Source: Phoronis australis (taxonomy: Eukaryota > Animalia > Phoronida). From it: a DNA stretch of 64,000 bases. This document shows positions 2,007 through 62,143 of the stretch, piece after piece (the first letter of the stretch is position 1; every line of letters begins with the position of its first letter). The stretch spans positions 1 to 64,000 of the forward strand of contig NMRA01000875.1 of the NCBI GenBank assembly GCA_002633005.1, given 5' to 3'. The notes beneath the pieces were generated by a model. The model was given only the letters and a program-made list of their open reading frames with translations. It did no database searches and was not told the DNA's origin. The position numbers were made by a program, and so were the translations under genes.

Positions 2007-2293
2007 TGTATGGTAACCACCTATACCTGCCTATCTTCCTTTCATTTATTATAAATGCGCGCATGCGCTCAGTCATTCGGCAAACGAACAGCTGATTCAG
2101 TGTCAAGAGTGTTATGGAGTGAATACTTTGCCACCCGATGTGCTTTATACATCGTGCCGTGTATTTTGTGCCTACCTCTACGATTCTTCATGATTGGACC
2201 ATTACTTGAGATTTGACCATGCTGATCTGCAGTGGACTATTATTCATTTACACTACGTGTCAGAGAACGGTGCTGCCTTAGTGCGCTAATAAT
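2007..2293 (+). mobile_element. Possible 5' LTR fragment of the Gypsy element
   Basis: Starts TGTA, with TATAAAT at ~2050 followed by CAGTCATTC, directly upstream of pol. It is cut by the N at 2294, and no 3' LTR is visible for comparison because of the gap. Confidence 0.3.
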
Positions 2294-2304
2294 NACCCCG
2301 TTAT

Positions 2305-5300
2305 ATGGAATGTATTATTTCCAAAAAACCGGTGACAATTCAGCCTAATTCTGTAAAACGAGTAGGTTGTTTTGAATTCCCCAAAATATCCTCCGCATTG
2401 GTTTTTGAGCCCTGTGACGAGCTGGATTATAGACTCATGATTCCGCGGTCTGTTCATGATACAGCAAAAGACCCAGTACTGTACATTTTTAATGGTTCAG
2501 ACCGAGCGATCAGGGTTAAAGCTGACTCGAAACTAGGTTGGGTAGAACCCATTGCTGAGAATGTAGATAACGTGGTGATACGATCTACAGGTGTCGCTGC
2601 TGTGTCCGACGATGCTGACTCGTCGTCTGCCAATCCGGATTCCTCTCATAAAGGGATTGCGGAGTTGTCGGCCGATGGGAACGGTTCCTCTGGTTTACCT
2701 CTGAAGCTGCATTCACTTTTTGAAGTATCGAAGACTGGCTTGTCCTCTAACGAGGCGTCAGTTCTTGAAAATCTCTTAATAGAGTATCAGGATGTGCTTG
2801 CTGCTGATGATTTAGATCTGGGGAATTTTACGGCAGTCGAGCATGTCATCGATACAGGCTCTGAATTTCCCGTCAAAATGGCTATNGACTATGGAATTCC
2901 ACCCCGTTATATGGAATGTATTATTTCCAAAAAACCGGTGACAATTCAGCCTAATTCTGTAACACGAGTAGGTTGTTTTGATTTCCCCAAAATATCCTCC
3001 GCAGTGGTTTTTGAGCCCTGTGACGAGCTGGATTATAGACTCATGATTCCGCGGTCTGTTCATGATACAGCAAAAGACCCAGTACTGTACATTTTTAATG
3101 GTTCAGACCGAGCAATCAGAGTTAAAGCTGGCTCAAAATTGGGTTGGGTAGAACCCATTGCTGAGAATATAGATAACGTGGTGATACGATCTACAGGTGT
3201 CGCTGCGGTGTCCGGCGATGCTGACTCGTCGTCTGCCAATCCGGATTCCTCTCATAAAGGGATTGCGGAGTTGTCGGCCGATGAGAACGGTTCCTCTGGT
3301 TTACCTCTGAAGCTGCATTCACTTTTTGAAGTTTCCAAGACTGGCTTGTCCTCTAACGAGGCGTCAGTTCTTGAAAATCTCTTAATAGAGTATCAGGATG
3401 TCTTTGCTGCTGACGATTTAGATCTGGGGAATTTTACAGCAGTCGAGCATGTCATCGATACAGGCTCTGAATTTCCCGTCAAAATGGCTATGAGACGAAC
3501 CCCTGTATGTTTCATTGATGAGGAAAAACAACACCTCCATAAAATGTTACAAGCAGGTGTAATTGTCCCCAGTACAAGTGAGTGGGCTGCTGCTCCTGTT
3601 TTAATTCGTAAGTCCGATGGTTCGGTGCGTTATTGCATTGACTACCGTGCTTTGAATAAAATTACTAAAAAGGATGCGTGGCCCCTTCCCTTGATTGATG
3701 AGTGTATCGACCTTCTATCAGGCAATGTCTGGTTTAGTAAGCTCGATGCTAACTCGGCCTATTGGCAGGTTAAAATCAGAGAGGAGGATCGTAAAAAGAC
3801 TGCTTTTATTACCAAATACGGTCTTTATGAATTCAAGTCCATGCCATTTAGTCTTTGTGGTGCTCCTAGTACTTTTTCTAGGGCTATGGGGTTGGTTTTA
3901 CGGGGGTTGAATTGGAATTCCGTTCTCGCCTTCTTGGATGATATTTTGGTGTTGGGTTCTTCTTTTGAGGATCATCTCCAGAATCTCCGGGAAGTGTTCG
4001 ACCGGTTTAGGGAGTATGAGTTACGACTCAAGCCTAAGAAATGTGGATTATATCAAAAAAGAGTTCAGTTCTTAGGTAGATGGGTAGGCCCTGATGGTTT
4101 AGAAATGGGGGATGATAATATTAAAAAGGTCAAAAATTGGCCTATACCCCAAACCAAGAAACAATGTCAAAGTTTTTTAGCCTTTGCTAATTACCACAGG
4201 TCCTTCATCAAACATTTTGCAGAGATGGCTTCTCCACTGTATGCGGTAACTGGTTCATCTAGTTTTAAGTGGGGTGATGCTCAGCAGTCGGCTTTTGATG
4301 AGCTCAAATTAGCTTTGATTACTCCGCCTGTTCTTGCTCTCCCCACATCAGATGGGGAATTCATTCTCGACTGCGATGCTTCTGACTTTGCGATCGGCGC
4401 TTGCCTATCTCAGATTCAGAATGGTGTTGAGCGGGTGATCTATGCTAGCTTGGCATTGGTCGATGAACAAAAGCGTTACTGCACTACTCTTAAGGAACTG
4501 CTTGCGGCAGTTCGTTTCACTCATCAGTACCGTCATTTTCTATTAGGTCGTGCTTTTACGGTAAGAACCGATCATAGTAGTTTGACGTGGCTCCTGAATT
4601 TCAAATCGCCCAATGGTCAGCTCGCACGGTGGATATTACAACTTCAACAATTTGGTGGTATGAAAATTGTTTACCGTCCTGGTAATAAGCACGCGAATGC
4701 AGACGCTCTGTCTCGTATTCCCGTGTCTTCTGGTTGCACATACAAGTATGGTGTTCAATTAGAGGATTTACCATGCCGGGGGTGTAATAAGTGCAAAAGG
4801 GCACATGAGGCTTCGTACGATTTTTCCAAGGAAGTAGATGATGCTTTTCCTTTGGCAACTCGGCCCACGCCTGTTTTGACTGATAAATGTGTAGGTACTG
4901 TTCCTGATCCCAGTAGTGACGCTATAATTAATCGTTTGTCTTGCTATAGGGATTCGATTTCAACTAATATGACGGATTATATTCCAGATGACTATGATGA
5001 GACTCAGCTTTCTTTGACAATTGCTTCCCCAGTCCCAGGTGGAAACATTCTTTTGGAGGATCATTTTTGGTTTTCTGAGGACAATGTTTCGATTCGTAAT
5101 GTTACGTCTTCCAATTATTTGGACAGTGTTCCCGACTTGGCTAAGAAGCAAAGAGACGATGTAAATCTTCAATTTGTTTTTGATTATTTGGAAAATCAAT
5201 CTTACCCTAGTCAGGACACACTCTTTTTAGCTAGTAAATGTACTAAGTTTTACTGGATAAACAGAGATAACCTGGAGCTGGTGAATGGAGTTCTACACTG

Positions 5301-6657
5301 GAAATCTACTGACGGATTATCATCTCGTTTGTTAGTAGTGCCGTCCTCACTTGTTAATAATGTTATTAAATTACATCATGATGTTCCATCGTCTGGAAAT
5401 CAGGGTATTGATAGAACGGTATCACGTATTAAAAGTAGTTTTTACTGGCGTGGCATGACAGCAGACATTAAAAAGTACATAGATTCTTGTTCTTCCTGTA
5501 ACCATAACAAGCAGGGTAGGGGAAGGCACGGAAAGTTCCCTATGAACCGGTATCATGCTGGTGTTCCTATGGAACGCGTTCACTTGGATTTTATGGGACC
5601 TTTTCCTATGACTTCCAGGGGTAATGCGCACATACTCATGATGGTGGATCAGTTCACTAAGTGGGTAGAGTGTATTCCTTTGCCTGCCCAAACTGCGGAA
5701 TTAACTGCGTTTGCAGCAATAAACGAGTTTTTTACAAGGTTTGGTTACCCTTTCCAGATCTTTACGGATCAGGGTAGGAATTTTGAGAGTGCTTTGTTTT
5801 CTAATGTCTGTAAGCTTTTGCAGATACGCAAGACAAGGACTACTCCTTACCGCCCCTCATCCAATGGTCAGGTGGAGAGATTTAATCGTACATTGATGGA
5901 TGCTGTTCGATGTTACGTTTCTTCTAGTCAGGATGACTGGGACCTTTTCTTGCCGCAGATTGCATGTGCTATTAGGTCTTCAGTTAATAGGCAGACAGGT
6001 TTCACTCCCAACATGCTTATGCTGGGCCGTGAGATTAATCATCCGGTTTCTCTCATGTATCCAGTGGCACAAGGGCAGGACCCTGTTTCCCCTATTGATT
6101 TCGTTGACACTCTTCAAAAGAGGATTTCTAGTGCACATGAGGTGGCCAGGAAGACCCTAGTCACTACCCAAGCCCGTATGAAACGCGATTACGACCTTGT
6201 GGCACACCGTCGCTCGTTCAAGACGGGTGACGTTGTATATATTAGTGACACCGCGGTCATTAAAGGCAAATGTAAGAAGTTAAGTCCACCTTGGAAAGGT
6301 CCTGGCATTGTTATTGATGTTCTTACGCCTTTTCTTTTCAGGATCCGACTTGAGAATTCAGTTTCCACTGTTAATCATGATCGATTAAAAATTTGTAATG
6401 ATAAATTGGAAACGTTGCCTAATCAGATTAAAAGGATGTTAGCTGTGGGTAATTTTACCAGTCCCCTTCTTGTTGATAACGACCTGTACTGTGTATGTCG
6501 CCGCCCGGATGACGGAGGATTTATGATCCAATGTGATTCGTGCGATGAATGGTACCATGGTAGTTGTGTCGGAATAAACAGTGAGGTGGCGGCTACCATC
6601 GACAAATATTATTGCCCTCGGTGCAAGCCTGTCAGGCGGTCTTACTTATCATGTTAA
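2305..6657 (+). CDS. pol: Ty3/Gypsy Pol polyprotein (spacer, RT, RNase H, integrase, GPY/F, C-terminal PHD finger); gag and protease not visible
   Basis: RT motifs: YCIDYRALN, LDANSAYWQV, MPFSL, FLDD (3931-3942). RNase H motifs: DCDASDFAIG, KELLA, TDH, NADALSR. Integrase motifs: H..CSSC, DFMGP, TDQGRNF, NGQVERFN, WKGP. The order RT-RH-IN is Gypsy-type. 2295-2885 duplicates 2901-3491. Confidence 0.95.
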   Translation: MECIISKKPVTIQPNSVKRVGCFEFPKISSALVFEPCDELDYRLMIPRSVHDTAKDPVLYIFNGSDRAIRVKADSKLGWVEPIAENVDNVVIRSTGVAAVSDDADSSSANPDSSHKGIAELSADGNGSSGLPLKLHSLFEVSKTGLSSNEASVLENLLIEYQDVLAADDLDLGNFTAVEHVIDTGSEFPVKMAXDYGIPPRYMECIISKKPVTIQPNSVTRVGCFDFPKISSAVVFEPCDELDYRLMIPRSVHDTAKDPVLYIFNGSDRAIRVKAGSKLGWVEPIAENIDNVVIRSTGVAAVSGDADSSSANPDSSHKGIAELSADENGSSGLPLKLHSLFEVSKTGLSSNEASVLENLLIEYQDVFAADDLDLGNFTAVEHVIDTGSEFPVKMAMRRTPVCFIDEEKQHLHKMLQAGVIVPSTSEWAAAPVLIRKSDGSVRYCIDYRALNKITKKDAWPLPLIDECIDLLSGNVWFSKLDANSAYWQVKIREEDRKKTAFITKYGLYEFKSMPFSLCGAPSTFSRAMGLVLRGLNWNSVLAFLDDILVLGSSFEDHLQNLREVFDRFREYELRLKPKKCGLYQKRVQFLGRWVGPDGLEMGDDNIKKVKNWPIPQTKKQCQSFLAFANYHRSFIKHFAEMASPLYAVTGSSSFKWGDAQQSAFDELKLALITPPVLALPTSDGEFILDCDASDFAIGACLSQIQNGVERVIYASLALVDEQKRYCTTLKELLAAVRFTHQYRHFLLGRAFTVRTDHSSLTWLLNFKSPNGQLARWILQLQQFGGMKIVYRPGNKHANADALSRIPVSSGCTYKYGVQLEDLPCRGCNKCKRAHEASYDFSKEVDDAFPLATRPTPVLTDKCVGTVPDPSSDAIINRLSCYRDSISTNMTDYIPDDYDETQLSLTIASPVPGGNILLEDHFWFSEDNVSIRNVTSSNYLDSVPDLAKKQRDDVNLQFVFDYLENQSYPSQDTLFLASKCTKFYWINRDNLELVNGVLHWKSTDGLSSRLLVVPSSLVNNVIKLHHDVPSSGNQGIDRTVSRIKSSFYWRGMTADIKKYIDSCSSCNHNKQGRGRHGKFPMNRYHAGVPMERVHLDFMGPFPMTSRGNAHILMMVDQFTKWVECIPLPAQTAELTAFAAINEFFTRFGYPFQIFTDQGRNFESALFSNVCKLLQIRKTRTTPYRPSSNGQVERFNRTLMDAVRCYVSSSQDDWDLFLPQIACAIRSSVNRQTGFTPNMLMLGREINHPVSLMYPVAQGQDPVSPIDFVDTLQKRISSAHEVARKTLVTTQARMKRDYDLVAHRRSFKTGDVVYISDTAVIKGKCKKLSPPWKGPGIVIDVLTPFLFRIRLENSVSTVNHDRLKICNDKLETLPNQIKRMLAVGNFTSPLLVDNDLYCVCRRPDDGGFMIQCDSCDEWYHGSCVGINSEVAATIDKYYCPRCKPVRRSYLSC
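6484..6624 (+). other. PHD finger at the integrase C-terminus
   Basis: LYCVC-x8-MIQCDSCDEWYHGSCVG-x11-YYCPRC, a C4HC3 pattern with Y/M/W cage residues. Confidence 0.9.
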
Positions 6658-6690
6658 ATTGTTTTTATTTGTAGGTTCTCTTGTCAAGAC

Positions 6691-8859
6691 GTGAGATTAA
6701 AGGAGAATCCCGACCTACCCGTTTTTAGGGGCAACGCAAATGCCCCTACTCAGGTAACGGTTTCAGCAGCCGTCGCCGTCGTGCCCGCCCCCCAGGGCGA
6801 GGGTATGCCGGTGCCGGCGCCATCTGTGGGTTGTGGCCCATCAACTTCTACGGAAGGAGGTGGTCCAGAACCTCCGGAACCCTCCTCATCCCCTTCTTCG
6901 GTGGGGGATTTTGATGATTCCATTTTGGAGGATCCTTATGCACCCGCCCCTGTGGCTGCAGTTTCTCAACCCTCTGTACCCATGGAGGTGGTTGTTGAGG
7001 AAATTCCCCAAAGACCTAAGAGGTCCACAAAAGGAGGTCCAGTGAAGTCATCCACCCTCCCAAGGGCTGGTACGGAGGCTTACTCTGCCCCTCCTCAACT
7101 AGGCGAGGTCGTTTCTTGCCCTCTATGTGGTTTCCACGTTTCTGGAGACCACACAGAGGATGAGATTTTACTTAGCCATGCGTATGCGCACCGTTTACCG
7201 GCCCTCTTCACGGTAACTGATGCGTTTACCTTGGCCGACCTCGATCTGCACCGAATAAGGTTTGAAGCCTTGTCGGTGCTCTACAGGTTGGTAGTAGAGC
7301 GTGAGATTAGAGATTGTAGGGACCTTTTAGATCTCTGTAATCTTTTATGTGGGGCTTATCCTGTGCTACCGCACATGCACGTCGTAGACCTAATGTCTAT
7401 GGGGTTCATGTGTAGTGCCATGAATTGGTCTTTCTCGGGATCCTTTGAGATTGATCCCAGGATCAACAGCCCAGCAGCTTGCAGCCACTGTCATGTTGTC
7501 CTGGTTTTGATGTCAAGGTTGCCGGCTGACGCTCTGTCCGCCTGGATCCACGCCTTTGGCAAGCGCGCAGTGCCCGTGCTGCCCAGAGAAATGTGGTCGG
7601 GGGGCGCAAGACTTTCAAGTCAAGTGCCACCCAGTTCCGTGACCCCATCTCCTTCGGGGGGTGGGGTGATGGGACAAGGAGAACTGGCTGGCGCCTCCAC
7701 ATCCTCGGGTGTGGCTGTCGCTAGCACAAGTTCTTCAAGTGGAGCTGGTTCCGCTGAACCTTCACTTGCTGCTAAGCAGCAGCAAGAGAGTGCTTGGCTG
7801 AACAACCTCCACCAGCAGGCTGGCCGTCTGCTTTATTGGAGGCAGCAGGCCACCCTGCCACAACAGGGGGTGAGGGATGCTGGTGCGCCGTACCCTCAGA
7901 TGACGTATGCGGCAAAAGTCCGCAAGCCACCTGGCCGGCCCCTAAAGGGTCGACGTCCATCTGGGGCTTCGCCCTCCGTGTCAAAAGCTAAATCAGGACC
8001 ACCTCCTGATTTAGCTATAGATGCCCACTTCCATCTGGATCGCTTGTCGGCATCCTGGGCTCAGCGTCATATCACTGAGACTAGGATGTTGACGATCGAT
8101 CAGATGCTCAGCACCCAGCTGTCACGGGTTTCTCAGAAACCTGTGCGGTTGGTTGGTGGGGTTGCAGTTTTCTGCGATGTGGAAAACTGGAAGTACATTG
8201 AGGCTTCCCGTTTCCCACATGGCTGGAAGGCTGTGGTGGGCATCCACCCCAAACGGGTTGGATCAACGAATCCCAGTGTTCTGGAGCGTCTCCCCCAGCT
8301 ACTAAAGGAGCCCTTTGTAGCTGGCCTTGGTGAGGTCGGTCTGGAGGCCCGGGAGGACTTGGCCATCCAAAAAGAAGCTTTGGAGGAGATGGTGCGAATC
8401 TTTGCGGAGGTTCGGGCCAGCTCCCCCAGCTTCAAAAATAAAGTCGTGGTGATTCACCTTCGTGGCTCACCCGACAATCCACGCTTCTTGGAGGGACAAG
8501 ACTTCGTCTTCGACCTCCTGAAGCGCCACTGTGATGCAGACTTGGGTTTGCATCTCCATTGTTTTGGAGGTGCGCCCGAGGATGTACTCCGGTGGACGGG
8601 GTTCTTTAGGAACTGCCACTTCGGCTTCGCCGGTCATGTGCGGCAGTTCTTAAAGTTCCAAAACAAGGGGCTACAAGAGGTTCCGATGAATCGACTCCTC
8701 CTGGAGTCCGATTCACCGCACCTCGCCATTGGGCAAGCCCCAATGGCGCCCCAATACCTGGGCGAAGTAGCCATGGAGGTGGCGCAGCGTTCTCGTCGTC
8801 CGCTGCGTGACATCCTGGATGCTTCCACCAGGAATGCCAGGCGGCTTTACCATCTCTAA
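6691..8859 (+). CDS. Retrotransposon-associated ORF2: Pro/Ser-rich N-terminus, C2H2-like motif, helical region, C-terminal TatD-family metallo-nuclease (~8011-8856)
   Basis: TatD motifs in order: IDAHFHLD, GIHP, GEVGLE, IHLR, HCF, GFAG, RLLLESDSP, NARRLY. The ORF is uninterrupted. The true start is uncertain; the frame is open from 6658. Confidence 0.9.
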   Translation: MRLKENPDLPVFRGNANAPTQVTVSAAVAVVPAPQGEGMPVPAPSVGCGPSTSTEGGGPEPPEPSSSPSSVGDFDDSILEDPYAPAPVAAVSQPSVPMEVVVEEIPQRPKRSTKGGPVKSSTLPRAGTEAYSAPPQLGEVVSCPLCGFHVSGDHTEDEILLSHAYAHRLPALFTVTDAFTLADLDLHRIRFEALSVLYRLVVEREIRDCRDLLDLCNLLCGAYPVLPHMHVVDLMSMGFMCSAMNWSFSGSFEIDPRINSPAACSHCHVVLVLMSRLPADALSAWIHAFGKRAVPVLPREMWSGGARLSSQVPPSSVTPSPSGGGVMGQGELAGASTSSGVAVASTSSSSGAGSAEPSLAAKQQQESAWLNNLHQQAGRLLYWRQQATLPQQGVRDAGAPYPQMTYAAKVRKPPGRPLKGRRPSGASPSVSKAKSGPPPDLAIDAHFHLDRLSASWAQRHITETRMLTIDQMLSTQLSRVSQKPVRLVGGVAVFCDVENWKYIEASRFPHGWKAVVGIHPKRVGSTNPSVLERLPQLLKEPFVAGLGEVGLEAREDLAIQKEALEEMVRIFAEVRASSPSFKNKVVVIHLRGSPDNPRFLEGQDFVFDLLKRHCDADLGLHLHCFGGAPEDVLRWTGFFRNCHFGFAGHVRQFLKFQNKGLQEVPMNRLLLESDSPHLAIGQAPMAPQYLGEVAMEVAQRSRRPLRDILDASTRNARRLYHL

Positions 8860-8861
8860 CA

Positions 8862-9488
8862 NNNNNNNNNNNNNNNNNNNNNNNNNNNNNNNNNNNNNNN
8901 NNNNNNNNNNNNNNNNNNNNNNNNNNNNNNNNNNNNNNNNNNNNNNNNNNNNNNNNNNNNNNNNNNNNNNNNNNNNNNNNNNNNNNNNNNNNNNNNNNNN
9001 NNNNNNNNNNNNNNNNNNNNNNNNNNNNNNNNNNNNNNNNNNNNNNNNNNNNNNNNNNNNNNNNNNNNNNNNNNNNNNNNNNNNNNNNNNNNNNNNNNNN
9101 NNNNNNNNNNNNNNNNNNNNNNNNNNNNNNNNNNNNNNNNNNNNNNNNNNNNNNNNNNNNNNNNNNNNNNNNNNNNNNNNNNNNNNNNNNNNNNNNNNNN
9201 NNNNNNNNNNNNNNNNNNNNNNNNNNNNNNNNNNNNNNNNNNNNNNNNNNNNNNNNNNNNNNNNNNNNNNNNNNNNNNNNNNNNNNNNNNNNNNNNNNNN
9301 NNNNNNNNNNNNNNNNNNNNNNNNNNNNNNNNNNNNNNNNNNNNNNNNNNNNNNNNNNNNNNNNNNNNNNNNNNNNNNNNNNNNNNNNNNNNNNNNNNNN
9401 NNNNNNNNNNNNNNNNNNNNNNNNNNNNNNNNNNNNNNNNNNNNNNNNNNNNNNNNNNNNNNNNNNNNNNNNNNNNNNNNNNNNNNNN
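8862..9488. other. Assembly gap, probably hiding the 3' LTR
   Basis: Run of N starting 2 nt after the ORF2 stop. Confidence 0.95.
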
Positions 9489-10827
9489 ATGCAAATTTGA
9501 TATGCAAATGAGGGAGTACTTGACTACTGCGCCATCTATACATCGACGGAAAAGCTTAAATACCCGTGACTGCGTGTGGGAAGTTGCGATTGAGTGCTCT
9601 GAAGTCGATATTTTTAAAGTACAATTACACCACTGTTTAAGGTTGCAAAGTGAGTTTTTTGATATCCTTCTATAGAAAAAGCTTTAATCTCTCTGATGAA
9701 ATCATCTGTTTCCTTTTAAACGAAACTTAAGTCCTGAAATTAGACCGGGGAAGGAGGCCAAAAACGGCGGTTTAGCTAGTTGTCCCTTCCTGGTTATCTC
9801 TTCCTGATATTAGCGATGTTGGATTTGGAGATGAAGAGTTTGGTGGGGAGGAAGTTGCAGGAGATAGCATCAATATGTACGGCTATGGAGACTATGATGA
9901 CACGTTGTCTACAGGTTTCAGTGGTGTCCACAGAATTCATGATGCAGCTGGTGCACACTCAGCTGTGGACGATAGCAAATTTATTGTTTTTATGAAACCC
10001 TCCTTTCCCTTTCAAATCTCATCAACGTCTTGCAAAGAATGAGTGATGTTCGGATTTCTTCTGTTAAAGGTTCAACACTCTCTTTCTACCTCCTTCTCTG
10101 AAAGGTGTCGCACTTGATCATTTGGTCATTGCATTTACTCTTCTCTGAAAATTAGGAGATTTTTCACTAATTATGGAAAGGAGATATTTATCCCATCTTA
10201 AATTCTTATAATTCACTTAGCTACAAGCTCAGCTCACAACTAGAAAAAACTGGAAATTTATTCAAAAGTTGATGTCACATCTTATTTTGCATCATTAGAC
10301 AAATGATAACCACATGAAAATCTGTGTAAAATGTAATGGCTCCTTATTTCTTCAAGATGTAAAATGACATAGAAGGTTAAATATTGGATATTCTCTATAT
10401 TTACAGGTCTTAAATTATTCTCTGAACTTGAATTTTTGAGTTGTTTTTTCACGTGTTTGTTATTCATGATAAAGTACCTGTACGTCATCATTGATAAGAT
10501 GCATAACCTTGCAGACCACGATGAGCTGGGGTCACTGAAGCTGGACCTAGAGTAGCTGTAGCGACTGACTTCCATTTCCTTCCTCTACCTCCTCTTACAC
10601 TTTCACCTCTCCTTGTTTTCATGGCTCTCCCACATATCCTATGGAATTAAACAGGTCTTTTAAATTTCATATAGTCTCAAAGTTCATCAAAAGCCATGCC
10701 TAACGTTGGGAGTAATTTCCAAACCAAAGCAAATGCTTCAAACAGGACTGGTAATGTGTGAAAAAATTCTTTTTCTGAGAGCATTCCATTAGTGAGTTCT
10801 CAGCCCCAGTCTGTTAGTCTAAGCTCT

Positions 10828-15734: not shown

Positions 15735-16594
15735 TTAAGGTGTTCTTTTCAGATTGAAAATTTCTATATCTTCCTGATACAGATGAGCGATTCTCTCTAT
15801 GATGCTGCTTTCAATTTGTTTGTAGTACTTCGACAACTTGTTGTCACCACGCCTTTTCCTGTTTTTTTCTTCATGTGCCGTTAACTTTTCCGGAAATCGT
15901 CCCACGATATGCGTAATATTGGCACGGCTCAAAATGTAATTAGAATCTTCTGCAAACGTGTCGTACTTCCCAATGACGTCAAATGTAATAGCACATGGGT
16001 TGCAAAGTTTATAAAATTGCACCCAATGTTCATTTTCCGGGTATTTAGGAGGACGTTTCAAACTCTTCGGGTCATTGATTATGAAGTCAAGGAAACCCTT
16101 GAAATTTGGTTGATTCGCATGCGAGTAATGTCGTATGCTAGCAATTCCGGCGCTGTTTCGAAAACCCGGATCACCGGCACTGTTGTTTTCGTATTTGTCA
16201 CGAAAACACGACAAAAGACGATCCCAATGATCTCTCACTACGACAAATTTTAGGTAATTTTCCAATCTGTACTTAATAGCTTCGTGATCACCATAGAACT
16301 GAGCTAGAGTTTTCAGGCCCTGTCCATGGACGCTTCCACGTGACATACTCAAAACTTTAGATTTGTTTACTCCTCGAAGAATAAGAAAGGCACGTTTCCA
16401 ATTTGTACACGCCACTTTTGGGATGTTACACCAGATAATTTTGTGCTCATCGTCGACCACCAGGTGTCCCAACTGACTGTGATCGATGGTGCGATTCGCC
16501 AGATGTGGGAATCGGCTGCATTGTTTCCTCACCTCCTGTTGTCTGAGTAAGTTTCTGTCGGCCGCCTTTACGGGAAACCATCGTAAGCTTCCTG
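15735..16594 (-). CDS. Carbohydrate sulfotransferase (Sulfotransfer_2, CHST8-14/HNK-1ST-like), catalytic terminal exon
   Basis: 5'-PSB IPKVACTNWKR, 3'-PB VRDHWDRLLSCFRDK, HW, CNPC, IGKYDT. No N-terminal TM anchor is present. A NAGNAG acceptor (ttttggtatCAGCAG) at ~16592-16597 suggests upstream exons. Confidence 0.9.
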
Positions 16595-17013
16595 CTGATA
16601 CCAAAATAAACATTTCTGAATACGAAGACGAGATACTGGCGTGGTCACGAGTGCCTGCATAAGCACACGGGTACGGGCTCGTGCTCACAGGCACACTGGT
16701 AGTGTTCACAACAAGAACGAGATGAACTCGGAGTCAAACACAGGTGCAATGGCATGTCCTGTGAACATCTTTAAATATTTCACAATGATGAAGCCGCCCG
16801 AAGGGTTCTCAAACGACTACCTTTCAGCCCGTTAACGTGTGTTTATTCAACACGCACTATTGTTAGACTTGCTTGAATGGCCAATAGATATGAGAAGTCA
16901 CAGGGTTCTTAACCGAATGCTTTTCTGTGCGTTAAAAATGCCAAAACTGGAAATGATAGTAAAAAAACAGCCTAAATCGTAGCACATTTGATTTAGGCCA
17001 GAACAGAAGCACC

Positions 17014-37892: not shown

Positions 37893-40800
37893 CAACAAGT
37901 GGCGCTTTAAAACATGGCGGATGTGTTCTAGAATTCGGGAAGATATCCTGCAAAAATATCAGCCCTATAGCCCAAATCCGCCTATAAAACCTAACCATGG
38001 AAGCAAACACGTTCATTCAAGGCATGAAGGCTGCACAACAGGACGCGGAAATAAAGAGATTGTTCATAGAAATTTTCGAACGTTCTCTCAATGAAGCCTG
38101 TCGTCACTCAACCGAGGGGTTCAAAGATATGTTACAGTCAACAGGACGAAACAGCCTGTTAATACACGGTTTAGAGGAAAATAAGGGGATGAGCCAGTCA
38201 TAAACATAGCCAAGAAATTGGAAGTTTACCTGCCCGTAATTGAATTAGACCGCACCCACAGGTTTGGTGCTTTTAACAGAGATACCAGGGGTAAACCTAG
38301 ACCGATCATCGCTAAGTTCATTAGTTATCGTAAACGAACAGAACTTCTGAAGAAAAGGTCGACACTTGCGGTTACACAGGTGAACCAAGGGCGTGTCTCG
38401 GTGCGAAAAATACATGTATATATTAATTAAAATCCCACAAAGAGGAAAGCTGTTATTTTTGCAAAATGTCGCAGATTAGTGAAACAGGGACACATCAAGT
38501 CGACATACGTGAGAGATGGGAAGATCTTCATCAAGAAGAATAATCATTCTTATCATGAAATGAATAGAATGGAACAAGTTAGCGAATTCGTGGAAGGTCT
38601 TTGAAAGAGTCAACCCCAGACACCAACGCCGGAACGGGTTTTGAACCGTGAATAATATGACGGCGTATGGTTACTTAGTTTAGGTATTCGTCAGATAGTG
38701 CGGAATTGGGTTAATATTCTAGGCGGCGTTAAAAAGTTTGTTTTGTGTTAATTACGTTTGCGCAGAAATCAGTGTCATCTCGTAATTTGATACCAGTACT
38801 TTTACATGTATTTCATGTTAATCTGCTGTTTCAAATTCTCTATTTAGCTGTCTGTTTATTTAATTATATTTTCTAATTTTTAGTTCCTATTTGAATCTTT
38901 TCTTCAGCTAGTGATCTCTTGCAATAACGACCTTTAAATTGATTCAACGTTTTCTTTGTGCCAATGTTGAACATCTGGTAGTAACCAAATCAGGCTTGTA
39001 ATCAATGGCTTGTGCTCAAATGCAGTGTTTCAATTGGAGCGCTCCCACTGTTCTTCACTTCGCTTGCCATTCTATAGGGTATACATTTATAACTGCAGTA
39101 ACTATTCAAATATCCAGGGCTTTAGCATGCATAGGATGACTGTCGATGCGGGCTGCCTTCTCAGATTCAGGGTTCTTGCCGTCTCAGGTGTTTGTGAGTG
39201 CTGTTACAGCTCATTCATTTAGTGTTCGACTTTCTTCTTTGTCTTCGTAGCTATTTGTCCATTGTGTTTCTTCTCTTGTATATGTTTTATGTTCAAGACT
39301 GTGCAAACAATCACTGGTAGTATGCGCAGAAAAATTTAATGTCACTGAGAGCAATACTTGAATTTAGTTGTAGTCCACAAATTAAATTTCAACATGGAAT
39401 TAAGTATACTTTCTGTAAACTGTCAGGAATTTAGAGATTCCGGGAAAAGACTTGATGTTCAAAAGTACCTAAGAGATAAGTCATTCAATATGTATTGTGT
39501 TCAAGATGCTCATTTTGTGAAGGCTTTGGAGGATCAAGTCCAATTACAGTGGGGGTTTTCCTGCTATTTCAGTTCATTCAAGGACAATGCAAGAGTAGTC
39601 GCAATATTGCTGAGTAATAATTTTGAACATCAAATACACGGTTGGAGAAGTGACAAAAGTGGGGATAATGTATTACTTGATACAACAATGGAGGGAGGAA
39701 GAATTGCGCTTGTCAACTTGTGTGGTCCAAACGAGGACAAACCTGACTTTTTTCAAACCTTTTTAAGGAAATTGAGGAGGTGGGTAATGAAAAGTTATTG
39801 CAAGTAGGGATTTCAATCTTGTTTTAGACCAGTCTAAATACACGCGTTACTATAAGCAACGCAATAATCCAAGTGCTAGTGAAAAATTAAAAGAACATAT
39901 ACAAATGTGGGAGCTCGTAGGTCCATTTCGGGAATTCTAACAGAATTTACACGTAAACCGTTATACATGGAGACGCAAAAATCCTATCAAGCAGGCGAGA
40001 TTGGACTTTTTCTTACTTTCAAAAAAGTTTCTTCACTTTGTGTGTAAAATTAATCAGATCATATCATTCAGGTTTGCTATTGAGTGTTAAATTAAAAGAA
40101 ATCTTAAGAGGGAAATTCCTTTGGAAATTCAATAATTCTCTGTTGGGAGACTTGGAATATACTTAGAAAAAATTACTGAGGTAAAACGGCAATATGCTGT
40201 TCCAGTTTACAATTATGAAATGATTGATACAATTTCTAACAATGAAATTCAATTCGTAATCAATGACCAGTTGTTCTTAGATGTTTTGTTTATGGAAATC
40301 CGTAACACCACTATAGACTACTCAATAAGAAAGAAGAAAAAACACATCAGTTACGAACGTACATGTAATTTAGAAGTTATTAATTGGTTGGGAAGCAAGG
40401 ACAACCCGACTGAAGATGATCTAACGACTCTAGAAGAAAAAAGATCAATTTACAAGAACTAAGAAGAGAGACTTCGAAGGACTATGTTGTCCGATCAAGA
40501 GCAAAGTGGAGACCTCCCGAACCAAATATTTTTGCAACTTAGAATCAAGGAACTTTTTTAGTAAGTGGATAGATGCTATAGAAACAGAAGAAGGAGAAAC
40601 TATTACGGATCAAAAGGAAAGTTTATGCGAAACAATGAATTTTTATAAAAACTTACATTCTTCTAGGTCTGAGAAATTTTGAAGTTCTTTTGGGAAAACA
40701 TAAAATATTTTGTATTGGGGCACATTAAATGTAGTGTTTTGAAAAGGGACAAATGTCTACAACTCAACGGACTGGGATTATTACATGTATTCCAAAACCA

Positions 40801-43800
40801 GACAAGCCAAAACAGTTTCTGAAAACTGGCGACCAAAAACTTTATTAAATAGTGTATACAAACTAGCTTTGGGAAGCGTTGCAAACAGATTTAAAACGTT
40901 CTAGACAAACTGATTGCAAATACACAAACTGGATTTATTAAGGGAAGATTTATGGCTGAGGACACAAGAATAATTTATGATATTTTATTTATGAGTTATA
41001 CGGACAAGCACAACATTCAAGGACTACTCGTGTTGATAGATTTTGAACAAGCTTTTGACAGTGTTTCCTGAATAATTTCAATTTCAAAGTCAATATTATT
41101 CGATGTATGAGAACATTTTGTAATTTTGCCCGTGTCAAACAACTTCATACTGGAACGCAGATGTCGACAAGGTGATCTCTCTCCCATTATATTTTATACG
41201 GTGTGCTGAAATTTTGTCCATATTGATTAAACATGATCCTGAAGTGAAAGGTATCAGAATCGACAACGAAGACTTCGTTATAACACAATACACAGATGAC
41301 ACAACTTTCACATTTGACGGAACTCCAAGATCCCTAGCAGCACTTATGAACAACCTAGAGCTCTACGCAGGGATGTCGGGGCTGAAGATAAACTATTCTA
41401 ACACAAAAGTAGTGTGGATTGAAAGTAGAAATTTCTCTCAACAAGTGTTTCATCGGACGCGTTGGAAACTAAAATGGGGTGACGTTGATTTTAAGCTTCT
41501 GGGTATTAATTTCAAAGTGAACTTGGAAACTATGTGTATGTCTAAAGATAACTTTGATGCAAAAATAATGGAAATGAAGAATCTGATTTATATATGGTCA
41601 CAATATTAAAAACACTTGTGCTTCCAAAAAATTATACATCTGCTGACGCTGTCCCAATGATACTACTTTTGGCGATATTGAAACTTTGTATTTTAAATTC
41701 ATTTGGGACGGTAAACCGGATAAAATAAAAAGAGGAGTACTCCTTAAATCCATAGAATAGAGTGGATTGAAGATGATGTCAGCAAATTTAATATGTCTTT
41801 AAAAAAGAAGATTCTTTTTAACAACATCTGCATGGAGGTATTTGTTGCAAAAAGATATCGGGCTTACTACTAGAGAGGTAATGTTTAGCTATGGAGACCA
41901 TAGGTTAACTAGATCGGATAACTGTAACTCTTTTGGAAAGAATGCTTCCAGTATTGGAGCCTTTAAGTTCACAAACAATTTCGAGACACTAAAATACGGT
42001 GTCAATTAATTTGTGGGCCAACAGTACTACATGTATTACGGTGGAATACAGCCCTTGTATTTATGAGTCATTCGTTGGAAAAGGTATAATATTTGTGAAC
42101 GATTTTTTAGACTGGAATGGTAACTTTTACACCTTTGACAGTTTCCAGACGATTCATCAGATTAAAGGAGAATGCCACCTGATTTAATTAGTCATTTTAC
42201 CATCTTAATCGGTCTATATCCAAATCGCCTCTTATACCGTTGATCTCACCTTTCCGAGAGGTGTCGCCTTAACCTGTGAGGAAGGTGAAAAACGACGCAG
42301 CGGCGTCAGTGGTTCGTCTGCAGAGTGAATGCCGCTATATTGCGTGCCTCGTTCCCGCTTGTCCGAACTATGAAGCTGTGAACAAAGCGGGTATATCGTT
42401 TTTTCGGCTTCCTCGAGAGCTCGAAATGCTTAGGAAGTGGCTCGCGGTAGTGAAGAATGAAAGGTAGGCTGTTAATAGCAAGTATGAGGCCGTGAATCAT
42501 CTCCATGTATGCGGCCATCATTTCGTCGACATTGATTTCTCTGACGAATTCCGGCTTACCAAAGAACTATCCACACGTTCCGTTGCCTGTGCCTGTGCAC
42601 GGCGCCTCTCTAGTGTTTCTCGATCAGTGTATCCCGGTTCGAACTGATAGCCTGTGAAACCTAACGATCCGAACCGTGAAGTCTTTGTCGCCTGAGCTCT
42701 TGACTAAGTCGGGATTGGCGCGGGCCGAGTTGCCGTTTATTAGTAAACGTTCATTATTCTGCGTTCTGTTTCAAAATAAATTATTCTCATCCTTATCAAT
42801 GCTGATATGAAACTGAAACAAAGTCTGTCTCATTAGATACTATTTGGAATGCCTTGGAGTGCTCGTGAGTGCAAATGTTTTAGAAGCCAGCAATGAATAG
42901 ATCACTGCGTAACAAGCTTTTGATGCCGGCAACAAAGGTAATTGACCGGGCACCGAGGCCGTGTGAGCGCATGCTAATTCAGAAAGCTGTTTGGAAACAA
43001 TTACTCTATTTTATATGCAATGGTCACATGTTAGGGGAATCTTTATTTAGAAATACAAATACATTATTCAATTCATTGTTATTGCACAACCTTTGCCCTG
43101 ACGGTCTGTCGAAGAGGAACCCGACTTCGCGGCCCCCGACATGTATGTAGATTTTCAGCTTCGTCGGTGGCTAATTCACATTAATAATTACGTGCACATT
43201 ATTTCTTTGGCTCACTGTTATACTGTAATCTTTTCGTGACTGGAAATTTGGTTTCCATTTCAAGCTGGTTTATGTTCGTGCCATTCTCGCGACGGGTCTG
43301 ATCGGGTTCCGAGCCACTGGCCGGGATAACAAGTCAGCCCGGCCACGACGGGCCTGATCGGGTTCCGAGCCACTGGTCGGGATACCAAGCGTTTTGTGTG
43401 TTTAGAAATAAAAAAGTCACAAGTATAACAACACAGATCTAGGTTCTCCTGTCTGTATTTCACGGAAGAATGCATCGAATTTATCTCTGAACAGACCCCA
43501 AACTCCCCAGTGCTACGGACCTTGATAAATTGACCTGCCGAACTTTGTAGGCTACGGTATGTCCAAAAAGCACTAAATCCGTAACAGCGAAATAAAACAA
43601 CATGCTTTTATAAGAACTCGGTGTATTTTTAAGGGTTTTACATCGAAGTTTGATGATTTATTGGTGTTAAACGATGAATTCAAGCGATAAGCTGACACCA
43701 GTAACCCAAGTTGTGAACTGCTGAACAGACTGCGTGTGAAACCAATTACGCCACTGGATAATTTCAACACCTCCGTTTATTGTCAGATAACGCAACCGAA

Positions 43801-44773
43801 CGTGCCGTTGTCGAGTAGAACTACTCGATCTAAATTAATGTCACCTTTCTCAACTATTATTCAATTGTTAGTGCAATAAAAATATTTGGATACGTTTTCC
43901 AAAAACTTAATTCTAAAAAGGTACATGTATGTTGACCACTTGTATATTTTTCTCTAAAAATATTATTTTGACGAAAAAAGGCATGTCGGGATTCTTACCA
44001 TATTCTGTGCAAAAATGACATAATACCATCAGCACAAAAGAAATTCGAAGTACTAGGATTTTCGCTATCAGAAAAGATGTGGAATTTCTATTACAAACTT
44101 CCACATGAATGTACGAATGGCACAAGCTTACTTTCTTTCAGTTCCGCGCAATGCATGAATTCCACCTACTAATCATTTCTTAAATAATATTAGATGCTGT
44201 ATGTGGACTCAAATGCTGGTACTTTTTGCAATTACTTTGCCGAAACTCTAGAACAGTTATTCTTTGAATGTGAATATGTTAATTCTTTCTGGCATGGGGT
44301 ACGTCTCTGGTTAATGAAAGCAATGCAAGTAAATTTTAAAATAGACAAAACCACTATTACAGTTGGTCTTCAAAATGAACAAAACAGAATTTTGAATTGG
44401 TTCCTTTACAAAGTAAAATTTTCATTAATTTTATAAAATGAAATTTGCTAACGTCAAACTTAATTCGTCTTAAATGTTGAAGGTGTGTTTTAATGTAGAA
44501 TTTAGTGCTTCGTCAAACATACGGAAATTTAATGATACAAACAAATGGGAAGATTGGAAATGTGTTTTTGAAACATGAAGGGAGCCGGATAAATGTAGTT
44601 GACCAGGTGCCAGAACAGAAATTTAAGTAGTACTTTTTAACTTGGAAGTAACAATGAAATGCTTTTTCGATTTTTTGCACAGTTCTGTAAGCCGTTGTGC
44701 TGTGTTGTGTATATTTGTATATGCACCTGTCTTTTGTAATAAACGTATTTAAAGTAAAAAAACTAAAAAATAA
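37893..44773 (+). mobile_element. Near full-length decayed L1/Tx1-clade LINE (ORF1 ~37997-38600; ORF2 ~39394-44570)
   Basis: ORF1: LLIHGLEE, DRTHRFG..PRPIIAKF. APE domain: LSVNCQ, YCVQDAH, GDFN, RLDFFL. RT: IDFEQAFDSV, TQYTDDTT. C-terminal FCNY..ETLEQLFFEC. A-rich tail and 12-bp TSD AAAATAAACGCC (37881-37892 and 44774-44785). Confidence 0.9.
42166..43834 (+). mobile_element. Kolobok-like element inserted in LINE ORF2
   Basis: Left end TTAA|AGGAGAATGC. THAP remnant CLVPACPN..FFRLP..KW..VCGHHF (42341-42525). Removing the element restores LINE text HQINVTFLNYY. The right TIR is deleted. Confidence 0.8.
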
Positions 44774-46884
44774 AAAATAAACGCCTGGAAAAGAAGGGCG
44801 TGTAAACGGAAACTCATAGGTTTGCTGACTTTGACATTCTTACTTAAAACTGTGTTCTTAAATTTTATGTTAATAAATGCATAGTTCGCCAACATTTTGT
44901 TCGTTTTTATAAGTGATAAATAATCCACAAAACTGAATTTGTTACAAAGAGTTGACGTTGAGTGAGGTTTTAAGAAGAAATTTTCCGAATAAACTGCCCA
45001 CCAGATGGATAATTGTCACCATGAGTTACAACACCAAATGTACGCCCAAGGACGTCTATTTGGCATAATCTTCCGAATAAACGCCCATGGGCGTTTCATC
45101 GGGTGGGCTTATCAACGGAAAATTTCGATAGAAATTTTAGACGAGCGATGTGCAGTTGAAGATGCGAGGTTTTAATTCCTTGTTAAAGCAAGTGGAATAT
45201 GATGCCCTCGCAAGAGGTCCCATTGTAAGGGGAAGCTACTTCTCCTTCCTCATTTTGAAATCATTCATGTACATCGTTTCATCTCAAGTGGTACATGTAG
45301 GCTGTCGGAGGTTGCACTTGTGATGGAAACAAAGTCAAAAGACGCAGCAGTAGCAAACTCAGCAGACGAAGACGCATCCTGATGAGCAGAAGTCATGCGT
45401 CTTTGTTTCAAACTTGCGGATCAGGAGAAGGCAAATAAACAAAATAATTTCACTGTGGCGTGTGCATGCGTTAATTAGTTCATTTGAAATGATTTCTTTA
45501 ATTTCAATTTGTCTGGAATAACTATTCTCTTTAGTTGTATTTCTAAATAAGTGTATAGGCTGTGTAGTGACTCATCAGAGTACTTGTTCTGTACATGTAT
45601 ATGTAGAAAAAAAAATTGTCAGTCTTTAAAGCCCAACTAAAGCTGAATTTTGTTATTTTAGATGTTTTGGGCTAACCAGATAGTCCGAGAAAGGCCTTAG
45701 TAAAATAAGAAAACGCGAGTTCAATCACGCAAATGTAAGCCCGTCAAATGATAGGTGAAGCTGCTTTTTTGTGCCATGTTGCGTCACCGCGAGATCCCAG
45801 CACAAACAACAAACGGTCGATAACAGTTGTATTGAACTGGGGTCTGAGTAGAACACCATTGTGTGCGGGTGTTATTGGCAGCTGTTTGGATTAAAGGTGA
45901 TTCTCGCGTTGACGTAGACAAAAGCAACCCAATACGCCTAACAGTTCGTTACGTTTGGCAATTTATGGCAATAGTGGGTTCAGAGCGAAGCTCTTAACAT
46001 ACTGTAGAAACCAAATTTACAGGTGTTACCGTTCAAGATAAGCTTTAAAAGAACACGGTTGTTTAGTTAATCACGTCATTTTATGTGTTGTAGTGCGCAG
46101 TACTAGAGTTTTACACAATAATTATTACGTTACAACGTAAATAATATATCGATTGAATGTTACGTTGTGCTACTGCGCTGGATCACCGTTGGCAAGTTCT
46201 ATTACTTGCTGTATTAGAGGTCTTCTCAGTCACGTTACTGCGTCATACTGCGTTTGTTGTACCTTTTGGATTTTAACGAGAACACTGCAATGCCAAGTAG
46301 CTCCCCAACCATTTGCTTGTTCGTATTGTTCTTGTAAATATGTCTTTATTATTTATCATCAACCATGTCACCCGCAGTGTCTTCCATATTTTGTCCGTTT
46401 AGCCTATACCATTCGGCTCCAACTTTTTCATTGATGCCCGTAATGTACACTGCTGTTTGCGTTTACGATTGCAGAGACAGTCGCGTGAAAATCATCTCCT
46501 CCGAAGTGAAACTGCGGGCTTCATATTAGCCGCTACAACGATCTAATTTATTGATTGATGCGCAGGATCCCTTAAATAAGCCAAATAACGGCTTTTGACG
46601 TGGTTATGTTGGCAACGAGAGGGATGTGACAATTCGAGGTGCCTCGTTCGTCAAGCAACAGCTGCAAAGTTTAACACCTGAATCAAACCCGAATTTTGTT
46701 TGACACAAAAATTAATGTTTGGCAAACTGCTTTTAAGCATTAAAATGTCGCCGAAGAGTTTCAAAAATTTGACGTTCGTCGCCATCAAGCGTGTATGATT
46801 TTCATATTTCCACCATACAGTATGCCTCTGCTGCGAAATTCAATGGATTATCTTAGGAACTGACTCACAGTTGTCGCCGATGCC

Positions 46885-48559: not shown

Positions 48560-49260
48560 ACATGTAGTCCAGCTCCACGTGTTCATCAAGGTGAGATATC
48601 TGAACTTATATTGAAAGAAATGCGTGATCTAAAGTCTGCGCAAGATGGGTTCAGAAAAACGTTTAAATTCAGATGTGACCTTACTGAACTGCACCCGTCT
48701 GAATCATGCTCGACAGGGGGATACTAGACCTCCCTTGGTCAAATTTGCTGTTGAGTCACTGGCTCAAAAATTATAGTGCTGCGAAACAAGCAAAAATTAA
48801 AGTGCACGCCTTTATTTCAACCACATTTTCTACGTGAAAGCAAATCTCACACTGACAGGATAATTGAAATCAAATTCAAAACAATTATTGAAACTTTGCC
48901 GAACAACAAGGAATTCAAGATCCGCTCAATTGGACCAATTGTGAGAGTGGCCACAGGTGAAGACGCTGACTCGGGGAACAAAACAGTGAGGATTTGCGAT
49001 GCCAATGTCGGTGGTTGGACTAGCATCAATTTATTGCTCCGTGAACACTTGCTGTCTTCAGTCAACGCCCTCATCATAGGGGTGGCAGAAACTCATTTAC
49101 ATCCAAATAAATGTAATACTTTGCCCGGTTATTGTTGGTACGGATACAATAGGCAGCTTATAAACAAGCGGGCCCACAGATCGAGGTTCGGGTGGGGTGG
49201 GAATATTTGTTAAAACGATTTGTTTAAAACATTTAAAATCGATGATTCATTACAGACAAG
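48560..49260 (+). mobile_element. Decayed LINE fragment (ORF1 end and APE endonuclease start; CR1/L2-like)
   Basis: NVGGW, IIGVAETHL, LPGYCWYGYNR and a frameshifted GSGGVG. Confidence 0.6.
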
Positions 49261-53711: not shown

Positions 53712-54290
53712 TTAACTTAACTGGGAAAGCCTAGCCTTGATTTCAGCAAATGTCTCCCAGACACTGCATGTCGGCAAGAATCATGTTGTTTCATAGCTCT
53801 TGTCAAAGCTAATAACTTCAAGAAGTCTATTCAAAGGAAAAACGAGTGGTTTGTGTTCCAAAGGTCAAGGACCACAGAAATATGTCCAAATTTAGGTTCA
53901 GATATTTATGACCCCAGAAAAAAACTTCGGAACGCCATGGCTGATCGTATTCAAATGAAACTTCCTTATACTATCCTTTATGCATGTACTGTTCTCCGCA
54001 ACCTTGTTAGGGATTACTTTTTTAAATATTCTCGTTTTGCGCGAGGATCTATATAAAATAAGACTCATGATTTTCATTAAAAAAGTAAAAACTTGAATAA
54101 AATTTGCATTTTTAAAACATGTCCGGGATTTATCCCTAGGACAAGTTCGTCCATGTTGCTCCTGTAAAACTGCACGTCGCCGCTGTTGGGTGTCAATGTT
54201 GAATACCTAAACGAAGTGCTTTGGGGTTAAAACCATCGCTACGATCTCCCACCTAGCAATAATCTCGAATAAGCCGCGGCAAAACTTTAA

Positions 54291-62014: not shown

Positions 62015-62143
<129 letters not shown>

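Follow-up and report, generated by a model that had tools for sequence, protein, structure and literature searches.

In errantiviruses such as Drosophila gypsy, env lies between pol and the PPT, with a splice acceptor after the pol stop codon. LTR retrotransposons seldom capture an enzyme stably. Third ORFs that hold another nuclease in place of env are already known from rotifers: in the available text of PMC5408684, the Gypsy-like Juno and Vesta elements of bdelloids carry as ORF3 a DEDDy exonuclease or a GDSL esterase with intact catalytic residues and unproven function, and Rodriguez, Kenefick and Arkhipova (2017) describe such ORF3s as typically spliced. The literature that we examined holds no shown function for a third-ORF nuclease of this kind. 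Fusions of PHD readers with retrotransposon proteins are known as well, for instance in cnidarians (bioRxiv 10.1101/2021.11.30.470311), with no link to a TatD ORF in the text of that preprint available to us. We found no description of TatD-bearing Gypsy elements in a literature search that left aside subscription journals, supplements, Repbase and Dfam, and the terms PHD, nuclease and third ORF occur 0 times in PMC6238403, consulted with regard to named Gypsy clades such as MolGy, C-clade and CsRN1.

The window analysed here, a stretch of 64,000 nucleotides from Phoronis australis (contig NMRA01000875.1, positions 1 to 64,000), holds pol and the third gene of a Ty3/gypsy LTR retrotransposon, that is, the 3' part of an element. 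Its features are as follows.

2295..2885, + strand: duplicate block, repeating 2901-3491 at 96.8% (19 differences in 591 nt)
2905..6657, + strand: Ty3/gypsy pol, an open frame ending in TAA at 6655-6657, 5' end cut off
3604..4077, + strand: reverse transcriptase (RVT_1, E 9e-30)
4270..4653, + strand: RNase H (RT_RNaseH, RT_RNaseH_2)
5338..5856, + strand: integrase zinc-binding and core domains (Pfam)
6490..6624, + strand: PHD finger at the integrase C-terminus (Pfam, E 6e-12)
6653..6674, + strand: predicted splice acceptor, a pyrimidine tract and TAG, 17 nt past the pol stop
6658..8859, + strand: ORF3, 733 codons between stops; translation from the first ATG (6805) gives 684 aa
7096..7575, + strand: C2H2-type zinc finger (7117-7191) and helical domain, model pLDDT 90.7
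7576..8004, + strand: linker of low complexity with basic patches, modelled at low confidence (predicted structure)
7801..7870, + strand: depth step, a rise in DNA depth of about 2.5-6 fold that lasts to 8861
8017..8853, + strand: TatD domain, class II (HxH), with full metal site and TIM-barrel fold
8862..9488, no strand: assembly gap of 627 N, inferred to contain the 3' UTR and PPT and perhaps the LTR

The pol domains follow the order RT-RH-IN, as in Ty3/gypsy (Pfam). The original prediction had pol running uninterrupted from 2305; the frame is indeed open over 2905-6657, but 2305 sits in the duplicate block, which has a single N on either side (2294 and 2886) and is probably an assembly duplicate or artefact. 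Because Pfam detects no protease in 2905-6654 and the frame begins at an assembly join, we regard pol as open but truncated at its 5' end. Gag, protease and the 5' LTR are absent from the window, and relatives whose reverse transcriptases are 64-73% identical do have gag and protease. On the 3' side, contigs extend 45-84 letters beyond 8861. Near ORF3, where the gap at 8862-9488 hides the region, this copy shows no PPT, LTR or target-site duplication, and beyond the gap lies a separate, very abundant repeat (depth 540-3400, versus 7-345 across the element).

ORF3 follows the pol TAA on the same strand as a stop-free, intronless frame, and it is richer in GC than pol (0.556 versus 0.432), all as predicted. 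The length of 722 aa given for it counts from a GTG at 6691; the frame is intact, but from the first ATG the protein has 684 residues. Its assembly is poor at this locus (single-N joins, the duplicate and the gap), and relatives are publicly named TATDN2, which would suit a chance adjacency, a chimeric assembly or a host TATDN gene beside the element. That reading is hardly credible: the pol-ORF3 boundary is spanned by reads and contigs that show neither a break nor a loose end, at least four element variants coexist in one sample (pieces with 0, 15, 37, 55 and 76 differences), and the same order recurs in 27 related loci. Chance adjacency, a chimera and a host gene are refuted by the pol found upstream in related loci and by the TatD found beside the closest integrases.

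Those relatives were taken from the best 150 of 463 clusters returned by a full scan at E<=1e-10; a word search with a single protein had found 1 relative among 7992 candidates. Their layout is LTR-PBS-gag(HhH, capsid, CCHC)-pol(PR, RT, RH, IN, PHD)-ORF3-PPT-LTR, where ORF3 consists of a variable N-terminus, the C2H2/helical domain, a linker and TatD. The TatD-type frame, labelled ORF2 at first, does come after pol, but it is the third ORF, behind gag and pol. Pol domains lie upstream on the same strand in 17 of the 18 loci with more than 3000 nt of upstream sequence and in 24/27 with more than 2000 nt; L034, whose TatD is truncated, has 3.5 kb upstream without pol, and L010 and L048 show none within 2.0 and 2.5 kb. 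A PHD finger stands upstream of TatD in 27/51 related loci, most of the others being too short to show it, at a distance of 1238-2685 nt in relatives and 1381 in the window copy. Downstream, PPT and TG occur 90-842 nt past TatD in 20 of 32 loci with more than 300 nt there, and in L086 the PPT/LTR start flanks a full gag-pol-ORF3 unit on either side, so that the LTRs predicted to enclose the ORF are present in relatives. These counts are not fully independent, as several loci are near-duplicates, and the related contigs are collapsed repeats.

Counting from the integrase gives the same picture. In two draft genomes, G001 and G002, all 11 of the 11 best integrase matches (54-60%, through the PHD finger) carry TatD downstream, as do 4/4 partial contigs matching at 48-54% through PHD, versus 0/20 lower-scoring Gypsy contigs from the same samples, many of which end soon after pol. 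Across 18 elements, TatD and integrase distances are correlated (Mantel Spearman 0.63, reached by 0/5000 permutations), and the nearest neighbour is identical for the two proteins in 15 of them. Judged from these comparisons, ORF3 is inherited together with the integrase. The TatD layout marks an old Gypsy group, likely spread across marine invertebrates, and we are close to certain of the identity and architecture of the element. Viral contigs account for 0/19, 6/52 and 0/37 stretches; five of the six group with bacterial TatDs and L006 is unplaced in the tree.

The TatD domain is complete, as the original prediction had it: Pfam TatD_DNase matches aa 454-732 over profile positions 1-253 of 253 (E 3.9e-28), the five motifs start at 8020, 8329, 8452, 8557 and 8704, and the ligands H457, H459, E559, H600, H634, E683 and D685 (numbering of the 733-aa frame) are all there. 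Across 42 family sequences E559, H600, E683 and D685 are present in 42/42, H634 in 41/42 and HxH in 39/42, so the catalytic residues are near invariant where overall TatD identity is 28-40%. The ratio dN/dS is 0.13-0.51 over 13 unsaturated pairs, and TatD evolves under purifying selection; together with the conserved order and the co-inheritance with integrase, this bears out the proposal of a dedicated nuclease module in the env position. Nowhere did the ORF turn out to lie outside the LTRs, to be a single-copy host gene or to be missing from copies of this pol. From its residues, ORF3 is very probably an active nuclease. Variant sites are too few to use: 25 synonymous and 15 non-synonymous in pol among 40 of 408 listed, and, from 31 ORF3 sites among 40 of 335 listed, 7 synonymous to 17 non-synonymous before TatD and 4 to 3 within it. 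Some transcribed copies have 1-nt indels in TatD.

In a tree with 10 bacterial sequences, the bacterial ones serving as the only outgroups, the TatD family forms a separate clade with its own insertions (support 0.987). The capture of TatD is ancient, not recent, and its donor may have been a host TATDN2 or a bacterial gene of YcfH type. Bacterial YcfH (PDB 1yix, 6l25, 2gzx) gives the best sequence and fold matches and has the same class II site (136.5 bits as best solved match, TATDN3 61.6, TATDN1 59.2), while structural identity is only about 21-23%. ORF3 might on these grounds be a DNA-end or repair nuclease with 3'-5' exonuclease and AP endonuclease activity, trimming cDNA ends or mending the gapped integration intermediate in the nucleus: the class II HxH enzymes YcfH and TATDN3 have such activities in the accessible part of PMC10085689, and an HhH domain, found in 7/9 gags by Pfam (E<=1e-3) and in more by eye, suggests DNA handling. 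We consider this unlikely though worth weighing, since most Gypsy elements of the same samples integrate without a TatD ORF and ORF3 is not fused to integrase.

Human TATDN2 offers a second comparison. Like ORF3, it is long and in part disordered and ends in an HxH class II TatD that has the catalytic Glu, Glu and Asp, and the portion of PMC10711561 available describes a long, disordered N-terminal part on which R-loop binding depends, a preference for R-loops and minimal activity on plain RNA:DNA duplexes. ORF3 differs in being intronless, mobile and multi-copy and in its extra folded C2H2/helical domain. Its cysteines have the spacing of TATDN2 C538 and C656, judged from residue numbers and not from an alignment (53 versus 55 residues before the catalytic Glu, 50 versus 51 before the last Asp). 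The first cysteine is present in 33/42 family sequences and 0/10 bacterial ones; the second is also in 7/10 bacterial sequences, and since it is common in bacteria and the best solved relative is YcfH, kinship with TATDN2 is a lead only. The minimal activity of TATDN2 on plain RNA:DNA duplexes weakens the original idea that ORF3 processes reverse-transcription hybrids. A 3' exonuclease would suit single-stranded intermediates, and RNA 3'-end processing was proposed as a hypothesis for the rotifer DEDDy ORF3 in the consulted text of PMC5408684, so that ORF3 could be active within the particle or next to it, working on reverse-transcription intermediates or removing abortive cDNA. With a separate ORF, no shown route into the particle, an RNase H of the element's own, that weak activity of TATDN2 and an enrichment of basic, NLS-like motifs, this strikes us as improbable.

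The original list of domains overlooked the PHD finger at the end of pol and the second folded domain at 7096-7575. The latter, about 160 residues with the zinc finger, is kept across the family; Foldseek matches it to nothing in PDB or BFVD at E<=0.001, its best VIA hit reaches Z 3.8 and Atlas gave no usable match, which does not make the fold new. Just ahead of the zinc finger, K(K/R)x(K/R) occurs in 12/40 family members versus 10/170 control windows, a count that omits the window copy, whose zinc finger did not fit the pattern. ORF3 shares the position and acceptor placement of errantivirus env, but it has no signal peptide and no transmembrane segment (highest 19-residue hydropathy 1.28; 1.8 is reached by 2/57 long relatives), and Pfam finds TatD only, with no fusogen match.

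In other Gypsy elements of the same genomes the third ORF has C2H2 without TatD (L103, L104, L110, L112), and that of L114 has C2H2 with a BTB domain; because of these variants, the third-ORF slot seems to hold a zinc-finger protein with swappable parts. They also speak for ORF3 as a regulatory RNA or chromatin binder acting in export or anti-silencing, like CERV of Cer1, which the accessible text of PMC10309623 describes as made from spliced mRNA; TatD would then be mostly a binding module, or the protein would limit the spread of its own or rival elements. A role in binding only would not need catalytic residues that stay near invariant at 28-40% identity, and we find this account slightly more doubtful than action in the particle. 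Relative to Juno and Vesta, the ORF described here encodes a TIM-barrel TatD and not a DEDDy fold ('TatD' occurs 0 times in PMC5408684), is stably inherited with integrase over a deep clade, is joined to the zinc-finger/helical domain, and belongs to elements with a PHD finger on integrase and an HhH domain in gag.

The acceptor behind the pol stop scores a median of 15, where three controls score 9, 7 and 10 (p 1e-7, 3e-12, 6e-5), by a second score designed after a first, cruder test that was not significant (11/28 versus 24/100). An ATG follows within 16 nt of the acceptor in 22/28; in the window copy the first in-frame ATG comes 130 nt behind it, after a short upstream frame. Raw RNA reads from three runs lie on the element at low depth, and none is spliced at 6675, where depth is 0-20. 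A read-through fusion of pol and ORF3 was considered and rejected: the frames agree in the window copy and L049 and differ in most relatives, and a search through 1549 candidates, in itself weak evidence, yielded no longer fused pol-ORF3 protein.

Two DNA runs of one sample, and one RNA run, also contain a second arrangement, in which unlike sequence is attached at 7801, and the depth step accompanies it. From that step, close to 7870, and the purine tract at 7865-7877 came the idea that TatD lies within the 3' LTR, which we rejected because the PPT and LTR of relatives lie downstream of the ORF3 stop.

As the best explanation, held with confidence no better than even, we propose a nuclear accessory nuclease made from a spliced message in an old TatD-bearing Gypsy clade. 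The acceptor that follows the pol stop would be joined by splicing to a donor close to the end of the 5' LTR, in the manner of env messages, and the ORF3 protein, made free of Gag-Pol, would then enter the nucleus; that it is nuclear and separate from the particle we hold with fair confidence. There the zinc-finger/helical domain would tether the protein, which would act like TATDN2 and, at transcribed copies of the element itself, strip R-loops of their RNA or remove nascent RNA, a step we put forward tentatively. Element copies would thereby stay transcribed and escape RNA-guided silencing or damage, and the integrase PHD finger would, independently of this, recognise histone marks.

Bivalve and hemichordate relatives carry annotations as host proteins, in some cases as TATDN2, and 13 members of one relative, at 90% identity, are distributed over 11 Mya arenaria contigs. 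The multi-copy 'TATDN2' genes of mussels (Mytilus) are likely element genes, in line with what was predicted for such annotations and judged without DNA context; the evidence, again from annotations seen without DNA context, supports the same explanation for the multi-copy genes of Mya and Argopecten that are labelled 'uncharacterized'. In a bacterial draft genome, about twenty contigs named 'TatD family hydrolase' are retrotransposons and likely animal DNA. Host 'TATDN2' expansions and bacterial 'TatD family hydrolase' entries call for corrected annotation. In this clade one captured nuclease is available in hundreds of diverged versions kept under selection, and the protein lends itself directly to expression and assay, whereby the role of non-env third ORFs becomes testable. 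It is possible, and we suggest it with reserve, that this is an undescribed ancient lineage, ranging from molluscs to deuterostomes, that couples a TATDN2-like R-loop nuclease, an accessory protein in which TatD follows a zinc-finger domain of unmatched fold, with a histone-reading integrase in counter-silencing; if true, retroelements would here have a weapon against RNA-guided silencing in the nucleus, concealed in annotations as host TATDN2 expansions and as bacterial TatD.

The Gypsy element of the window carries a real third open reading frame (ORF3) encoding a TatD nuclease, in an env slot already known to hold enzymes. Such enzymes are described in rotifers (PMC5408684) and PHD fusions in cnidarian retrotransposons (bioRxiv 2021.11.30.470311). 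Literature searches, with Repbase, Dfam and supplements outside their scope, found no description of a TatD ORF in such elements: text searches gave no mention of TatD in PMC6431247, PMC5408684 or PMC13524379, of a nuclease in PMC6238403 or of transposon terms in PMC12709183, and PMC6962438 merely lists TATDN2 in a squid Hox cluster. The features of the window are as follows.

2293-6657, forward: first open frame, ended by TAA at 6655-6657; Pfam matches to RT, RNase H, integrase and a C-terminal PHD finger
6658-8859, forward: second open frame (ORF3), 733 codons without a stop; full Pfam TatD domain at aa 454-732 (E 3.9e-28)
15738-16733, reverse: host ORF, Sulfotransfer_2 protein (E 7e-49)
46864-48012, forward: host ORF, rhodopsin-family GPCR (E 4e-24)
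39349-41609, 42195-43831, 48755-49213, 51910-55862 and 58981-63917: fragments resembling decayed LINE endonuclease/RT (by eye, no Pfam match), with several families of dispersed repeats found in both direct and inverted orientation

As originally noted, ORF3 is open, contains all the TatD motifs listed and is GC-richer than pol (0.556 vs 0.432); the proposed length of 722 aa, counted from a GTG, did not hold, the first ATG (6805) giving 684 aa. Gag, protease and 5' LTR are missing from the window, and 2295-2885, flanked by single Ns and repeating 2901-3491 at 96.8%, is probably an assembly duplicate. The roughly 190 aa (2905-3480) that separate RT from the missing protease have no Pfam match.

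The element is covered by DNA contigs from one sample and RNA reads from three others, in which the pol-ORF3 boundary is unbroken, and the overlapping pieces differ at 0 to 76 positions, so that several copies must exist. RNA depth is low. Across most of pol, and in run X7, it is the minus strand that carries the first mates, the pattern of sense RNA in most stranded libraries; some transcribed copies contain 1-nt indels. From about 7830 DNA depth rises roughly 2.5-6 fold, and there is a second arrangement that has the final kilobase of ORF3 (7801-8861) in common with the window and is unlike it before 7801; a sister subfamily could account for it, as could a derivative with a deletion. Directly past the gap, 9489-9800 is a separate, very abundant repeat transcribed from both strands.

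A family-motif search yielded 51 related loci, 39 from 93 metagenome stretches and 12 from 28 draft-genome stretches. Pol domains lie upstream of TatD in 24 of the 27 loci with more than 2000 nt of upstream sequence and in 17 of the 18 with more than 3000 nt, the loci without upstream pol being L010, L034 (TatD truncated) and L048; a PHD finger precedes TatD in 27/51, at 1238-2685 nt (1381 in the window). Long loci show the order gag-pol-ORF3, with HhH, capsid and CCHC parts in gag and a protease in pol. A polypurine tract followed by TG occurs 90-842 nt 3' of TatD in 20 of the 32 loci with more than 300 nt downstream, by a loose pattern that also matched upstream in four. Several loci have visible LTR ends and PBS-like TGG starts, and one, L086, is a complete unit with a polypurine tract and LTR start at each end. 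A placement of TatD inside the LTR was rejected, since the tract and LTR of relatives lie 3' of TatD and the L086 unit encloses it. The gags of L014, L017, L028, L049, L051, L053 and L095 begin with a helix-hairpin-helix domain, and L095 lacks PHD.

Integrase and TatD appear to have been inherited together. In the 18 elements where each domain spans 200 aa or more, integrases are 52-89% and TatDs 28-96% identical, and their distances correlate (Spearman 0.63, 0/5000 permutations); the two trees show the same pairs, and 15/18 elements have the same nearest neighbour by either domain, the window element, a long branch, being among the three exceptions. For TatD, the 13 pairs in which dS is not saturated have dN/dS values of 0.13-0.51; deeper pairs have saturated synonymous sites and dN of 0.22-0.53. 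In a tree with 10 bacterial outgroup sequences, two of which serve as root, all 42 family members fall into a single clade (support 0.987) whose deepest branch is the PHD-less group; one old capture fits best. The FCD cysteine occurs in 33/42 family and 0/10 bacterial sequences, and with the HCF cysteine it matches the spacing of two cysteines reported to be peculiar to TATDN2 among human paralogues, a lead towards a possible TATDN2 origin.

An AlphaFold2 model of the ORF3 protein from an 87-sequence alignment (mean pLDDT 79.7) shows two confident domains and a low-confidence linker, the C-terminal domain matching best the TatD structures 6l25, 2gzx, 1j6o and 1yix. E559, H600, E683 and D685 are invariant across the 42 sequences, H634 is kept in 41, and both histidines of the HxH motif, which characterises class II TatDs (PMC10085689) and is present in ORF3, in 39. 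At the start of the middle domain (7096-7575) is a C2H2-type finger; the domain models well (pLDDT 90.7), and structural comparison gave it no clear match. ORF3 has no transmembrane segment and is therefore not an env.

A full scan returned 2064 clusters at E<=1e-3, 463 at 1e-10 and 59 at 1e-30. In the best 150, TatD lies at or near the C-terminus (identity 29-42%); weaker matches probably include ordinary TatDs. Family proteins occur in Mya arenaria (13 on 11 contigs, 90% identical), four Mytilus species (6/16 proteins listed in two clusters named "putative deoxyribonuclease TATDN2"), Pecten, Argopecten, Ostrea, Ruditapes and the hemichordates Ptychodera and Glandiceps, and these named proteins are probably products of element genes.

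ORF3 may be translated from a spliced message, separately from Gag-Pol. An initial test for an acceptor gave no significant difference (11/28 vs 24/100). A second score, devised afterwards, had a median of 15 past the pol stop vs 9 in pol windows, 7 in ORF3 windows and 10 in 3' UTR windows; in 22/28 cases the site is followed within 16 nt by an ATG, a feature that plays no part in the score. Donor-like sites lie 160-285 nt into many LTRs (no control), and the low-depth RNA runs contained no spliced read for the window element. Basic motifs are enriched before the finger (12/40 vs 10/170). The favoured reading is a nuclear accessory nuclease, translated from such a message, that would remove nascent RNA or the RNA of R-loops at copies of the element itself; this last step is tentative and less likely than not. 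The reading is based on the proposed separate expression, the basic motifs, the TATDN2-like layout and cysteines, and the preference of TATDN2 for R-loops over plain hybrids (PMC10711561). The main rival is that ORF3 acts on DNA ends or in repair.

The reciprocal search, from integrase, used two draft genomes titled Sedimenticola sp. (G001 and G002; loci L046-L094), which gave 159 integrase and 28 TatD matches, four of the latter bacterial-type. More than 20 of their contigs carry TatD retrotransposons and are likely animal DNA; NCBI names these ORF3s, and some under Ca. Thiodiazotropha, "TatD family hydrolase". TatD was present on all 11 contigs whose integrases matched best (54-60%, the match extending through PHD), on four partial contigs at 48-54% and, without PHD, on lower-scoring L086; it was absent from four weak PHD-only matches (34-42%) and from 20/20 other lower-scoring contigs examined, many of which stop less than 1 kb past pol. 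On several lower-scoring contigs the third ORF is of another kind and encodes a C2H2 protein, in one case with BTB:

L103, 247-1386, reverse: third ORF of another Gypsy element, starting with C2H2 fingers
L104, 4603-5655: the same, in another Gypsy element
L110, 6672-7589: the same, in another Gypsy element
L112, 8466-9032: the same, in another Gypsy element
L114, 7326-9089: third ORF of another Gypsy element, C2H2 finger (by eye) then terminal BTB (E 6.6e-13)

The third-ORF slot seems to accept swappable effectors. A further third ORF, on contig L101 (553-1362, reverse), has no Pfam match and contains motifs that we take to be reminiscent of an SGNH/GDSL hydrolase, as in rotifer Vesta elements.
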